From Escherichia phage vB_ESM-pEJ01, in sequence record OP114734.1: 64,000 bases of DNA; one strand, given 5' to 3'. Shown one piece after another: positions 1-5,071 of the stretch. Made by a program: the position numbers and the translations under genes. A model generated the notes under the pieces. The model saw only the letters and a program-made list of their open reading frames with translations, was not told the DNA's origin and did not search any database. How positions within the stretch are numbered: the stretch's first letter is position 1; the number at the start of each line of letters is the position of its first letter.

Positions 1-36
1 GTAATAAATAAAACGGGTACTATACGAGGACTTCTT

Positions 37-291
37 ATGACAGAAGACATTTTGTTAAAACTCTATGATCGTCTGGATAACGAATTGGCAACATTGCGGG
101 GTGAAGTTCTCTATTTGTCTAAATGCAATACAGATCTGCTTAAGCAGATTGCAGAAAGGGATGATCAAATAAAATCCCTTTCAGGTGCATTACGTGATCG
201 CGACAAGGCATTAGAGATTTTACAGCGTGTTACCAATAAGGAAGAATTAAAAGACTTCTTACATGGTTATGCTCATGCTATCGATCTATAA
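37..291 (+). CDS. hypothetical small protein (84 aa, predicted coiled coil)
   Basis: ATG preceded by GAGGA; heptad-like charged/leucine pattern; followed by hairpin terminator; no family recognised. Confidence 0.4.
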   Translation: MTEDILLKLYDRLDNELATLRGEVLYLSKCNTDLLKQIAERDDQIKSLSGALRDRDKALEILQRVTNKEELKDFLHGYAHAIDL

Positions 292-295
292 TAAA

Positions 296-325
296 AAAGC
301 CCGTCATTGACGGGCTTAATTTTTA
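296..325. terminator. bidirectional intrinsic terminator hairpin between convergent ORFs
   Basis: stem AGCCCG/CGGGCT with 7-nt loop, A-run before and T-run after. Confidence 0.6.
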
Positions 326-1351
326 ATATGTATCAGCTAATTTAATTATGTTATCAAGTTCCGTGATTGGTAAAGTTTCTGTGTATCCATCTTTCAACAT
401 GGATTTATCAACAACGCCACAATGATAAGTTCTCTTTATTTCCTTTTCAAGTTCCCACGGAATCCAGCCATCAACACTTTGTTTGACGTAAACAAGTTTG
501 TGAACAAACTTAGATTTCTGCATATGTTGTTTCATTCTGGTTTCCGGTAATTCATTGGTTACACCAAACTTTATAAATTTATCATCTAACGTCTGGATAT
601 AAAAATATCCCATCTCAGATGGACGATAGCCAGAAGAACTACATTTCGGACACCCTTTAGCATTTCTGTTGAACGTACAATATCTTACGGAAAATTCTGC
701 ATCATGTTTTGTACATTTAAGTTTTATCCATGAATTTGCAGTACCTATCCATTCACCATCGACACCTATATATTCATACCCTAACTTTTTACATTTATCT
801 TCTATTCTAGATAGTGCATCTTCCACGGGAACGACATATTCCATCTTAAATTGTTCAGCCGCGCATTTCTGACAACCACATGTACCATGATTTTTAAAAT
901 CAAAGAACTTTGTATTCTTCCAAATATGGTCATGTTTCTTGCATCTAAGAATCATCTTAGTAATTTGTGATTTCCACCCACCAACAAATCCCAAAAATTC
1001 ATAATCAAGATCTTTACATTTTTCTTCAATGAATTTGGTTGCTTCCTCTTCTGTCATAACTCCCCTACATTGAGGGCAACCAACAATAACCTTTTTAGCA
1101 TAGAAACTATTACTGGAAACATCATAGACAGATCCATGCTTATTGCATTGGATAACAGATCTAGTCAATTTTCCTTTCCATTCTCCAGAAAATCCTAAAA
1201 ATGTATGGTCGACAAGTTTACACCTCTCAATAACTTTGTCCGCAAATTCTCTAGGAGATTTTGTTACTTTGTTTACTCTGTATTCTATTTCTTCCGGTTG
1301 ACGAAGATCATAAACGTGGGGATTGCTCCCCACGGAATTAATATTAAGCAT
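323..1351 (-). CDS. putative nuclease-like protein with three Zn-ribbon repeats and C-terminal GIY-YIG/T5orf172-like motif
   Basis: three ~55-aa repeats (Y-E-F-L-G-F..G-E-W..C.K-H..G-C-P-x-C); C-terminus GYFYI...KFGVT...R..QH; start moved to ATG at 1351 (RBS GGAAGGA), overlapping gene 2 stop. Confidence 0.5.
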   Translation of the reverse strand: MLNINSVGSNPHVYDLRQPEEIEYRVNKVTKSPREFADKVIERCKLVDHTFLGFSGEWKGKLTRSVIQCNKHGSVYDVSSNSFYAKKVIVGCPQCRGVMTEEEATKFIEEKCKDLDYEFLGFVGGWKSQITKMILRCKKHDHIWKNTKFFDFKNHGTCGCQKCAAEQFKMEYVVPVEDALSRIEDKCKKLGYEYIGVDGEWIGTANSWIKLKCTKHDAEFSVRYCTFNRNAKGCPKCSSSGYRPSEMGYFYIQTLDDKFIKFGVTNELPETRMKQHMQKSKFVHKLVYVKQSVDGWIPWELEKEIKRTYHCGVVDKSMLKDGYTETLPITELDNIIKLADTY

Positions 1352-2165
1352 CCTTCCACACCTTCCTTGCATCATAGTTTTTACCTTTAGAAACAAATTT
1401 ATATGTGTTAAGGTAGATAATATTGCTCCAGTCTTTCGGGCTAATCTCAACAAGTTTTGTTTTAATGTGTCCCGGTAGATATGCTTTGATCATGTGATCA
1501 CTTCCACGCATACCTTTTACATCGCTCCATTTGATTTTTAAGCGTGTTTTATTGCTCAAGGTAGGCGTAGATGCATATTGCTTTAAAAGTGCTTCCAGAA
1601 ACTGCTGACGGGCTTTAGGCGTTACATAGTGTAAGTTAAGACCCAACATTACAGTATTACCCGCCTTTGTCTTAGAATCACCCAGACAAATGATCAGCGG
1701 GAAAACATCCCAATATGGCAAAGTGTCTTTATACTTCGCATCATACATAAAGGTATAGATTCGCCCTACTTGCGGTTTTACAATCTGGTGTCCCTTTATT
1801 CCTGCTTTTATTGTTTTAGTAAACCACTCCTGTGATTTTTCTTTAGGACGACTCTTTGATACAGCACGCATAGACGCACGAAAATCATTAATCATCATCA
1901 TTGCGCGTTGCTGCTTATTGAGACCCTTTGCGCCTTTCCCTTTTAGTTTTTCAACTTCTATTGCTGTTTTAATTTCGCTGGCATAACGAGACATACTTTT
2001 AGTGAAAGTCGCATAGGCTACTCCCTTAGAATCTGCAAATGCTTTAGCTGTCATACCTTTGGCTTTTGCTTTCGCAAATTCTACACCCAATTCGACCCAC
2101 TGTTTAGACTTTCGCTTTTGGGGAGACGGCTTTTCGTCTTCTGTGATTATTTCAAATACGCTCAT
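1344..2165 (-). CDS. 2: DNA end-protector protein gp2
   Basis: 273 aa, lysine-rich N-terminus; position and orientation match T4 genes 2-4-53-5. Confidence 0.8.
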   Translation of the reverse strand: MSVFEIITEDEKPSPQKRKSKQWVELGVEFAKAKAKGMTAKAFADSKGVAYATFTKSMSRYASEIKTAIEVEKLKGKGAKGLNKQQRAMMMINDFRASMRAVSKSRPKEKSQEWFTKTIKAGIKGHQIVKPQVGRIYTFMYDAKYKDTLPYWDVFPLIICLGDSKTKAGNTVMLGLNLHYVTPKARQQFLEALLKQYASTPTLSNKTRLKIKWSDVKGMRGSDHMIKAYLPGHIKTKLVEISPKDWSNIIYLNTYKFVSKGKNYDARKVWKDA

Positions 2166-2176
2166 AATATTATCCT

Positions 2177-2650
2177 CTATTTGTTAAGCCCTTTAAAGCC
2201 AAATACTTTCTTTAATGCATGTTCGGTTATGATCTTAAACTCCATGTTATGCTTTTGGCATAATTTCACGGCAGCTAACCATTTTTCAGTATTTTTTGTG
2301 TACGTCCATACTTCATGCATATACCGTTGCTTTGTCTTCGCGGTCATTCTTTTTGGCTTTTCCGGTGGCCTTGTCTCTTTAGCTGGTTTAACTTCCCATA
2401 AATGCTCCTTGCCATCATCAAACTTAACGTAAAAATCCATAAAGTATCTGTGTCTTTTTCCGTCTGTTGATGACTCATAAGGAATTACTACGGTCTCAGA
2501 TCCCCATTTTGCAACTCTAGGATTGCGGTCTAGCCACTGCATGATCCATCTTTCCCAGCTTGAACGGTATGTGATTTTCCGTATATCCCCTTTATACTTT
2601 TCCTTATTCTCAGGAACATACTTGCCCTTATAAGTGTTAGATCCTCCCAT
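2177..2650 (-). CDS. 4: head completion protein gp4
   Basis: 157 aa; synteny between gene 2 and gene 53, divergent from gene 53. Confidence 0.7.
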   Translation of the reverse strand: MGGSNTYKGKYVPENKEKYKGDIRKITYRSSWERWIMQWLDRNPRVAKWGSETVVIPYESSTDGKRHRYFMDFYVKFDDGKEHLWEVKPAKETRPPEKPKRMTAKTKQRYMHEVWTYTKNTEKWLAAVKLCQKHNMEFKIITEHALKKVFGFKGLNK

Positions 2651-2665
2651 TTTAGCACCCTTTAT

Positions 2666-2673
2666 TATAAATA
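2666..2673 (+). promoter_or_regulatory. T4-type late promoter TATAAATA upstream of gene 53
   Basis: exact TATAAATA about 33 nt upstream of the gene 53 ATG. Confidence 0.5.
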
Positions 2674-2705
2674 CATAATACTATTTATCAATTGAGGGTG
2701 CTAAA

Positions 2706-3260
2706 ATGCTCTTTTCTTTCTTCCCTGCCATAGAATACAACGGCAAGATGATTACTGACATTGTGCGCAATTACCGCGCATATTTCAACGCAATAATTTC
2801 TGATTATAACATACAAACATATTACATTCAAGGTAGTCCACGACCGGAACAGGTTGCATATGAAGTATACGGAAACCAGCAACTTTATTGGATCTTGCTG
2901 ATGCTTAATGACGTATACGATCCGTTTCATGACTGGATCACCGATCAAGAGACAGCATATGAATCAGCCGAACAACGATATGCAAATGTAGGAGGAAATC
3001 AAGTATTATATCACGTTGATATTGACGGAAACAAGTATTGGAATCTTACCGAATATCCGAAAGGATCAAGCAATTGGTACGACAAAGGGGATATTCATCA
3101 CCGTCATTTGCAGTTTCATGGTGCACTGTCGGCGGTAGACACACTGGAAGATGCGATCCTCCGCAACGAGGAACGACGCAAGATCAAGATCATAGATCCT
3201 ACACAAATTAAACAATTTATTAACGCATTCATTCGAGAAATGGAAAAGGCTGATGTGTAA
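2706..3260 (+). CDS. 53: baseplate wedge protein gp53
   Basis: N-terminus MLF.FF..IEY and motifs YYIKGSPRPE, YGN.QLYW, KIKII match my recollection of T4 gp53; synteny. Confidence 0.85.
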   Translation: MLFSFFPAIEYNGKMITDIVRNYRAYFNAIISDYNIQTYYIQGSPRPEQVAYEVYGNQQLYWILLMLNDVYDPFHDWITDQETAYESAEQRYANVGGNQVLYHVDIDGNKYWNLTEYPKGSSNWYDKGDIHHRHLQFHGALSAVDTLEDAILRNEERRKIKIIDPTQIKQFINAFIREMEKADV

Positions 3261-3271
3261 GGTGATTAATT

Positions 3272-5071
3272 ATGCTAATGTTTAATAACTCCGTTAAATG
3301 GTTTACCGGAATTGTAGAAAACAGGGAAGACCCATTAATGTTAGGCCGAGTTCAGGTTAGGATTCATGGTATACATCCTTCGCTATCCGCACACGGTGAC
3401 ATTCAAGGTCTTCCAACCGAAGATCTATTATGGATTACTCCAGTACAAGATATTACAAGCGCGGCGATCTCCGGTATAGGTCAAAGCCCTACTGGTATTG
3501 TTGAAGGTTCAATGGTATTTGGTTTGGCCTTAGATGAACGTTATTTAAACTGCGTTATTCTGGGTACTATTGCCGGACAATATACAGAGAAACCACTCAC
3601 TACAGAAGGTTTTTGCGACCCTTCTGGTGCATATCCGCGTTATATTGGTAATGATGTTAATATTCTTGCTCGTGGTGGTATTAACCCAGAAACCGGACAA
3701 ACAACAAAACCTGATAGTGTCTATATTCGAGATGAAAACACTGGAGTTGCAGTAAATCCAGACGACGAGCCATTAGACCAAATTCCGGTTGACGATAACC
3801 CAGAATACACAATAGAAAAAATGCTGCGGGGCGATGAGGGATATCGCGAGAAATGGTATCTTGATTCAGAAGGATATCCGACAATAGGCATCGGGCATTT
3901 GATCATTTATAAGAAAACCAGTGATCTGGGTATTATCAATAATGAACTTTCTAAGCTGGTAGGGCGTGAAGTTACAAACGGAAGACTTACCGCCGAAGAA
4001 GTTAGCAAAGTATTTGCTGACGATATAGAAAAGACTCGCCGTGATATGCGTAAACATCCACGCATTGCACCAGTTTATAATAAATGTAATGCTTCTCGTC
4101 GTATGGCATTAGAAAACATGGCGTTTCAAATGGGCGTAGGCGGATTGGGTAAATTTAAAAATAGTCTCGCTGCAATGTTAGCAGAAGACTGGAAAAAAGC
4201 CTATGATGGATTGCGTCAATCAGTATGGGCTAATCAAACTCCAGGACGTTCTAGCCGTGTTTCTAAAATTATTCTTACTGGTAACTTAGAATCATATGGC
4301 GTAATTGCTCCAAAGAAAGAGGAATCAATTTCGGATGATCCGCGAGCACGTTTGAGAAATGCCCGTATTGCTGCCTATAAGACGCAGAGAGCAGAAGAAG
4401 ACCCAGAAGCACCGTTTACCCCACAAGACACACGAATCATGTTTAAAGAGCCTAAGAGTTCGTATTCTGCAAGGTATCCATATAACCATGTGTACGAGTC
4501 AGAGAGCGGTCATATTATCGAGATTGATGATACTCCTTCTCATGAGCGATATCATCGTAAACATCCTTCTGGTACATTTGAAGAAACCAGACCGGACGGA
4601 ACGAGGGTAGAAAAGATTGAAGGCGATGATTATCTGATCGTTAAACAAGGCCGGAAAGTAAACGTCAAGGGTAATTTGCAAGTTGTTGTTGAAGGTGACG
4701 CGCAAGTTTATTATATGGGTAATGTGATGCAAACCGTTGATGGTAACGTCACTGAATTTATTCGTGGCAATGTTAATCAGACCGTTGAAGGTACTGCTAA
4801 CATGCATGTTGTTGGTGATGTTATCGCACAGCTTGACGCTAATTTGACGGCTAACGTCAAGGGTAATGCTGAATTAATGATCGATGGTAACACTACCGAA
4901 ACAATTAAAGGTAACTATGATTTAACCGTTGAGGGTAATTTTAATATGACAGTCAATGGCACTAAATCAGATCAGGTTAATGGTGACTGGTCCCGTAATT
5001 GTGGTGCAAGCGTTAAAGATATTGCATCTGGTACAGTTAAAATTGATGGTAGCCGTATTGATCTTGGGTGA
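3272..5071 (+). CDS. 5: baseplate central spike / tail lysozyme gp5
   Basis: N-terminal OB region (WF.G.VE...LGRV.VR.HG), central T4-lysozyme-like domain (EGY..KWYLDSEGYPTIGIGHL), C-terminal beta-helix octapeptide repeats (V.G.). Confidence 0.95.
   Translation: MLMFNNSVKWFTGIVENREDPLMLGRVQVRIHGIHPSLSAHGDIQGLPTEDLLWITPVQDITSAAISGIGQSPTGIVEGSMVFGLALDERYLNCVILGTIAGQYTEKPLTTEGFCDPSGAYPRYIGNDVNILARGGINPETGQTTKPDSVYIRDENTGVAVNPDDEPLDQIPVDDNPEYTIEKMLRGDEGYREKWYLDSEGYPTIGIGHLIIYKKTSDLGIINNELSKLVGREVTNGRLTAEEVSKVFADDIEKTRRDMRKHPRIAPVYNKCNASRRMALENMAFQMGVGGLGKFKNSLAAMLAEDWKKAYDGLRQSVWANQTPGRSSRVSKIILTGNLESYGVIAPKKEESISDDPRARLRNARIAAYKTQRAEEDPEAPFTPQDTRIMFKEPKSSYSARYPYNHVYESESGHIIEIDDTPSHERYHRKHPSGTFEETRPDGTRVEKIEGDDYLIVKQGRKVNVKGNLQVVVEGDAQVYYMGNVMQTVDGNVTEFIRGNVNQTVEGTANMHVVGDVIAQLDANLTANVKGNAELMIDGNTTETIKGNYDLTVEGNFNMTVNGTKSDQVNGDWSRNCGASVKDIASGTVKIDGSRIDLG

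Follow-up and report, generated by a model that had tools for sequence, protein, structure and literature searches.

Why does a coliphage carry, between gene 2 and the terminator that follows it, a reading frame for a protein of repeated zinc fingers and a nuclease-like C-terminus that most of its close relatives lack? The frame could be a mobile element, a gene that serves the phage, or a passenger. The window analyzed here, the whole 64,000-nt stretch of Escherichia phage vB_ESM-pEJ01 DNA (OP114734.1), belongs to Krischvirus, the RB49-like, T4-type coliphages; over bases 1-3300 it is 99.0% identical to FL37/FL38, 98.5% to Skers, 98.3% to ECD7, and 93.4% to Phi1. The Skers GenBank record (MW748999) begins at window position 1, but by identity FL37 and FL38 are nearer. 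What is observed at this locus is the domain composition of the encoded protein, an insertion polymorphism, a linked flank, purifying selection, and a mosaic structure. The frame (Table 1), which some members of Krischvirus carry and others lack, is in our view likely a free-standing homing endonuclease gene from the GIY-YIG superfamily, in its T5orf172 branch.

Table 1. Features of the locus, in window coordinates
Feature	Position	Strand	Remarks
Conserved 84-aa ORF	37..291	+	
Bidirectional intrinsic-terminator-like hairpin	297..317		
Insertion relative to the RB49-type empty site	321..1342		1022 bp
Likely homing endonuclease gene	323..1351	-	342 aa; stop codon 323-325; PHROG 681 'endonuclease', 1e-78
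Predicted T5orf172/GIY-YIG-type nuclease domain	326..622	-	aa 244-342
CapR-type zinc-finger repeat 3 (predicted)	623..841	-	aa 171-243; C187, C213, H216, C234, C237
CapR-type zinc-finger repeat 2 (predicted)	842..1057	-	aa 99-170; C112, C137, H140, C160, C163
CapR-type zinc-finger repeat 1 (predicted)	1058..1261	-	aa 31-98; C44, C69, H72, C92, C95
N-terminal leader	1262..1351	-	aa 1-30; variable among homologs; aa 1-9 of low model confidence
GC-rich hairpin + TTTAT	1315..1334	-	10 nt past the gene 2 stop, within endonuclease codons 6-12
Gene 2	1344..2165	-	gp2; PHROG 429, 1.5e-71
Divergent patch, gene 2 3' end	1347..1413	-	19 differences from RB49, including 5 amino-acid changes
Gene 4	2177..2650	-	gp4; PHROG 218, 6e-61

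Gene neighbors, start codon and expression

As the original prediction held, the frame lies at the edge of the 2-4-53-5 block, with gp2, gp4, gp53, and gp5 encoded alongside (gene 53 and then gene 5 are also on the plus strand of the window), and its start overlaps the gene 2 stop: the ATG (1351-1349) shares 8 nt, ATGCTTAA, with the last codons and stop (1346-1344) of gene 2. The PHROG 681 match spans the frame almost end to end. Its orthologs, 81-99% identical in amino acids, include ORF130.1 of Phi1 (YP_001469475), gp128 of ECD7, and SKERS_2 of Skers, and relatives are labeled 'endonuclease' or 'putative GIY-YIG nuclease family protein' in GenBank. The gene has a GC content of 34.6%, against 40.6% for the window, and a search of the rest of the window found no paralogs.

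Alternative starts are possible at in-frame ATGs at 1375 and 1372, and the FL37 annotation uses an upstream in-frame ATG of this type. At 1370-1375 (minus strand), synonymous gene 2 codons, TAT GAT where RB49 has TAC GAC, create the in-frame ATG(s); they occur in MIZ4 and in every carrier allele of both types. With AAGG 8 nt upstream, this may be the true start, giving 350 aa. The ECD7 gene is longer by two residues (MLNININ...), because 6 nt, ATTAAT, are tandemly duplicated at its 5' end (1849-1856 region). The neighboring genes have peculiarities of their own. Roughly the first 75 residues of gp2 match a separate family, PHROG 32288 'HTH DNA binding protein' (7e-27), and the part beyond residue ~75 matches the DNA end protector family; as annotated in JSE, gp2 begins at the position equivalent to residue 26. 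For gp4, the head completion protein, Pfam gives a match to the TnsA-like endonuclease N-terminal domain (PF08722, E 4e-21).

The frame probably comes last in a transcription unit with gene 4 and gene 2 and would be expressed by read-through, with the overlap of its start and the gene 2 stop suggesting translational coupling. The bidirectional hairpin, which forms the left border of the insertion, ends both ORF130 on the plus strand and the gene 4-2-endonuclease unit on the minus strand. The second hairpin, just past the gene 2 stop, may stand in as a terminator, or serve as an attenuator, for transcripts of gene 2 and probably keeps endonuclease expression low. Its stem is retained in Phi1 and in the metagenomic contig L015, with changes in the loop, and the 115-nt region around it folds just marginally better than shuffled sequence (z -1.9). 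The unrelated cassette of JSE likewise places a hairpin between the gene 2 stop and the start of the inserted gene, which suggests that such an element gives gene 2 a substitute terminator and limits its own expression. We found no convincing promoter belonging to the gene itself. A T4-late-promoter-like TATAAATT lies inside the linked patch at 1396-1403 (minus strand), and we do not put it forward as a late promoter: the window has 3 copies of this motif where 7.4 would be expected.

Predicted zinc-finger repeats and nuclease domain

The N-terminal two-thirds of the protein is repetitive. Pairwise local alignments of the repeats score 89-117, against ~25 +/- 5 for shuffles (z = 12.7-17.4; 0 of 500 shuffles as good). 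The Pfam CapR homology domain (PF21817) matches three stretches at 55.7 bits, well over its cut-off of 24.2 (E 5.5e-15), and it exceeds the gathering score in 38 of the 39 sequences scanned, namely 38 homologs and the window protein. Each repeat has the core C-x24-C-x2-H-x19/20-C-x2-C, with a glycine before the first Cys of the second pair (G-C92/160/234), so that two ligand pairs, C-x2-H and C-x2-C, are separated by 19-20 residues, next to the ~20-26 residues of the CapR pattern. That each repeat is a zinc-finger module with predicted ligands C-x2-H...C-x2-C is thereby largely established. The original prediction of three tandem repeats with a Cys/His signature is borne out; its ~55-aa period is not, because the repeats recur every 68-75 aa, and ~52 aa is the length of their conserved core alone (first Cys through C-x-x-C).

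The C-terminal domain carries GYFYIQ (248-253), KFGVT (261-265), and R272, the signature that had been read from the translation, and in addition E302. In an alignment of homologs, Y251, K261-F262-G263, R272, E302, and D321-G-Y-T-E-T326 are invariant or nearly so, and R272 and E302 are at family-invariant positions that would correspond to the catalytic Arg and Glu. A Foldseek search of the PDB with the whole protein returned noise, with no match at E<=1e-3, because the model is a multi-domain string of beads (pTM 0.39); the C-terminal domain was therefore remodeled alone. The resulting model (pLDDT 94.7) is a confident GIY-YIG fold with the beta-beta-alpha-beta-alpha core, in which YFY249-251, KFG261-263, R272, and E302 fall in the expected order and on the expected secondary-structure elements; its top matches among solved structures are SLX1/HIGLE. 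Foldseek matches the domain to 84 BFVD viral models at E<=1e-3, the highest TM being 0.94; the matches at TM ~0.8-0.94 are labeled CapR-homology, GIY-YIG, homing endonuclease, and T5 Orf172, and one is named 'Bacteriophage T5 Orf172 DNA-binding domain-containing protein' (E 7e-6, TM 0.79).

Profile searches gave a divided answer. The zinc-ribbon side of the prediction was upheld by the CapR match, while neither nuclease family was found for the window protein itself: Pfam T5orf172 (PF10544) gave no match at E<=1 to the whole protein, and Pfam GIY-YIG (PF01541) reached E 0.047 and 14.4 bits against a cut-off of 22.6 for the isolated domain, over profile positions 3-40 only. A profile search of PDB sequences gave no meaningful match, and one of NCBIfam gave none. 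Among the same 39 sequences, Pfam T5orf172 matches 16 (E<0.01, best 7.7e-7) and MUG113 matches 15, the window protein being in neither set. As the window protein falls below the T5orf172 gathering score, its membership rests on transitive homology and fold. Both support placing the domain in the T5orf172 branch of the GIY-YIG superfamily, in keeping with the C-terminus originally proposed. Taken together, sequence and model largely establish three 'beads-on-a-string' CapR-type modules followed by a predicted GIY-YIG-fold domain of ~100 aa.

This architecture is already known, and the Krischvirus element adds a member to it. T5orf172 genes with repeated CapR/DUF723/DUF4379 zinc fingers have been described as putative homing endonuclease genes, the examples of Barth, Dunham & Seed 2023 being Gp53, Gp121, Gp130, Gp165, and Gp174 of the vibriophage ICP1 ('tcg' genes) (PMC10448857). 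These resemble the window gene in their N-terminal repeated CapR-type zinc fingers and C-terminal T5orf172 nuclease domain, in their variable presence beside essential genes, and in the modular swapping of their DNA-binding repeats (PMC10448857), and the ICP1 copies match the window protein directly in tblastn (26% identity over aa 108-342). They differ in host lineage, and the window member has diverged beyond the reach of the Pfam T5orf172 model; moreover, CapR has been described with CxxC as the first zinc pair (CxxC...CxC), whereas the window repeats have C-x2-H. T4 itself is without T5orf172 genes, and RB49, Phi1, JSE, and Krischvirus are not mentioned in that paper (PMC10448857). By its own statement, homing of the ICP1 genes is without experimental demonstration (PMC10448857); we found no such demonstration elsewhere in the literature, and no experimental characterization of the Phi1, ECD7, Skers, or JSE relatives in the literature searched. 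The available text of the Phi1/RB49 comparison paper, in treating Phi1-unique genes, does not call the gene a homing endonuclease.

The two halves of the protein also have separate relatives of known activity. The T5orf172 domain of the ICP1 origin-directed nuclease Odn (Gp88), which shares the conserved Arg and Glu, cuts DNA in vitro and is inactivated by mutation of the conserved Glu (E180A); unlike the window protein, Odn has a RepA_N-derived DNA-binding domain and serves anti-satellite defense rather than homing (PMC8263062). The CapR zinc finger binds DNA, and PLE CapR, the namesake of the Pfam domain, shares this module; it is a 15.5-kDa repressor that resembles the N-terminal domains only, whereas the window protein keeps a C-terminal nuclease domain (PMC8096241). 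The free-standing GIY-YIG enzymes T4 Seg (SegA-G) and I-TevI would be functional analogues. Their nuclease is N-terminal and that of the window protein C-terminal; they bind DNA through NUMOD/helix-turn-helix elements and one zinc finger instead of three CapR modules; and their second motif is YIG, in contrast to KFG here.

Insertion, linked gene 2 patch and mosaic alleles

Compared with the RB49-type empty site, the gene is cleanly inserted after the stop codon of gene 2 and ahead of the bidirectional terminator, with gene 2 and the terminator left intact; because TTAAT stands at both ends (316-320 and 1338-1342), the boundary of the insertion is ambiguous by 5 bp. Among 58 Krischvirus records, 10 (8 phages: FL37, FL38, Skers, ECD7, G2248, Cognac, ELT3, and Phi1) contain the gene and 41 an intact empty site; another 6 (5 phages) match the junction query over its left 85 nt alone, and the remaining record, Sf20, begins within gene 2 and is unscorable at this site. 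All eight copies compared are intact, without frameshifts or stops, and dN/dS is about 0.09-0.4 for every pair with enough differences to estimate, which indicates purifying selection on the gene. It had been anticipated that the frame would prove to be no core component and that its junction would be a typical site for a nuclease-type selfish element. Both expectations hold: a nuclease fold is detected in the model, most close relatives lack the gene, and the insertion is clean and sporadic, with unclustered carriers and a linked patch of gene 2.

This patch comprises the last ~70-100 nt of gene 2, in which the differences are concentrated; elsewhere the gene differs at ~1 site per 60 nt. A divergent 3' end is found in 9 of 9 carriers examined (the window and 8 phages), in the 19-difference form in the window-type carriers and as another allele in Phi1 and L015, and is absent from RB49, MIZ6, GEC-3S, Brandy, and E26. 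In the other 702 nt of gene 2, the carrier Cognac differs from the gene-less RB49 at 6 sites, and the window differs from FL37, a fellow carrier, at 11. The carriers are thus not grouped by the rest of gene 2, and gene and patch must lie together on different backgrounds. The patch is a candidate for a co-conversion tract or for a target allele that resists cleavage; its association with the gene could also be explained by simple linkage through descent. MIZ4, MIZ5, and kvi have the patch and lack the gene, which counts against homing. We considered whether the MIZ4-type site arose by deletion between the TTAAT copies and rejected this, since its junction bases are those of the GEC-3S-type empty site and not the predicted product; the site is better explained by an ancestral patch or by a crossover somewhere from 1347 to 1359.

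Comparison with Phi1 divides the gene into segments of contrasting history. The first ~240 nt (the leader and most of repeat 1) are near-identical, window positions 651-1110 (the end of repeat 1, repeat 2, and most of repeat 3) differ at ~35% of nucleotides, and the 2 differences within the nuclease domain are both synonymous, leaving the protein identical there; over aa 1-243, dS is 0.81 and dN 0.19. The 3' end of Phi1 gene 2 is a third allele, which within the phage collection is limited to Phi1. The metagenomic Krischvirus-like contig L015 (protein P0002) has Phi1-type repeats together with a Phi1-type gene 2 end, both set in a more divergent background. In these alignments, Phi1 and L015 carry a mosaic allele, in which repeats 2-3 are swapped and the gene 2 patch is different, a pattern that matches the module swapping described for vibriophage T5orf172 genes (PMC10448857).

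Each repeat type is separated from its own gene 2 3' allele by the conserved 240-bp stretch. Two genomes, Phi1 and L015, make up type B, and because a JGI metagenome scan found no relatives, the co-variation of repeats and flank rests on these two; a scan of IMG/VR yielded one locus, probably ECD7 itself. Co-variation of this kind could equally reflect co-evolution with the target or shared descent. It is possible, though we judge it unlikely, that a swap of zinc-finger modules has produced two natural specificity variants of the endonuclease, each linked to its own gene 2 allele.

A distant relative occupies the same place in another phage. In JSE, the gene EpJSE_00134 (3583-4725, minus strand) is inserted at precisely this junction of terminator and gene 2; its 380-aa product is a paralog with 27% identity, four stretches matching CapR, and a T5orf172 hit of E 0.007 and 17.3 bits against a cut-off of 20. 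G37-3, AV108, PTE-Eco09, and JK32 appear to share this arrangement, JSE being the one examined. Other genes have entered nearby. Cognac has a second insertion of ~1.1 kb at the gene 2/gene 4 junction (2791-3813, plus strand), with a 340-aa ORF that has no significant Pfam match. In MIZ6 (3128-3823) and Brandy (2128-2823), a gene for an HNH + NUMOD3 endonuclease (231 aa) lies at the gene 4/gene 53 junction. With these insertions, the gene 2-4-53 block is a Krischvirus hot spot that has received three or four different insertions of endonuclease type. Further afield, the metagenome contig L016 encodes at 3590-5050 a 486-aa relative with 34% identity and more zinc-finger repeats; it lies just downstream of gene 32 on a T4-like contig, and the family is therefore present at other T4-type junctions beside essential genes.

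Proposed homing, its alternatives and wider meaning

We posit that in a mixed infection with a gene-less relative, the zinc-finger modules would recognize an extended site at or close to the 3' end of RB49-type gene 2 and the nuclease domain would cut nearby. The break would be repaired by the phage recombination machinery with the gene-carrying genome as template, and repair would copy not only the 1022-bp gene but also some 70-100 bp of gene 2 beside it, a stretch that would itself be the non-cleavable allele. Nuclease activity and homing are predicted here from the sequence and the structural model, and it is the linked patch that suggests a target at the gene 2 3' end.

The strongest competitor, which we nevertheless hold to be quite improbable, is that the protein is a nuclease or DNA-binding protein co-opted for the benefit of the phage and does not spread by homing. 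It might (i) exclude or degrade co-infecting relatives or satellites, as ICP1 Odn does, or (ii) act as a site-specific repressor, in the manner of PLE CapR or of I-TevI autorepression. CapR and Odn are documented co-options of these same domains (PMC8096241, PMC8263062), relatives are also encoded on sizeable contigs (0.1-1.4 Mb) of Salmonella and E. coli, and the intactness of all copies under purifying selection is something that a purely selfish element at a saturated site would not need. Against this, ~70% of phages that are otherwise near-identical lack the gene, which is therefore dispensable, and it shows the classic insertion geometry beside an essential gene, with a linked flanking patch. 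Co-option overlaps with homing in part, because exclusion by DNA cutting would use the same mechanism.

Ordinary homologous or illegitimate recombination could also have moved a passenger accessory gene into this position with no nuclease-driven step. According to Arbiol et al. (PMC2839356), most Phi1/RB49 indels stem from recombination at promoter-stem-loop cassettes, and modular shuffling is already proposed for the differences between these phages. The insertion does abut a conserved stem-loop terminator and has TTAAT at both ends, and the mosaic structure shows general recombination at work at the locus. Against a passenger stand the DNA-binding-plus-nuclease architecture typical of homing endonucleases, the presence of two distant family members at exactly the same junction, and the clustering of other endonuclease genes at adjacent junctions; we regard it as very improbable. 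Homing endonuclease genes commonly degenerate after fixation, and the protein scores below the Pfam T5orf172 and GIY-YIG thresholds, yet a catalytically dead, drifting relic is hardly credible when 8 of 8 copies lack frameshifts and stops, dN/dS is ~0.1-0.3, the nuclease domain is protein-identical between the window and Phi1 despite strongly different repeats 2-3, and all family-invariant residues are retained.

A homing endonuclease gene thus remains the likely identity of the frame. It would otherwise be an ordinary selfish element that leaves the understanding of the phage itself unchanged, and its interest lies in the family. The CapR-repeat/T5orf172 class, known mainly from vibriophage ICP1, T5-like phages, and Aeromonas phages, also colonizes T4-type coliphages. 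Sequenced isolates include carriers, empty sites of the presumed sensitive type, and empty sites with the linked flank, together with a possible second specificity allele and a distant paralog at the same junction, making the Krischvirus locus a tractable E. coli-phage system in which homing and the modular recognition of targets can be studied. Should the gene 2 3' end be what the repeats read, the two allele types would be a natural snapshot of an endonuclease co-diversifying with its target or immunity allele, and they would also yield, if this is true, a modular recognition code open to dissection in an E. coli phage system.
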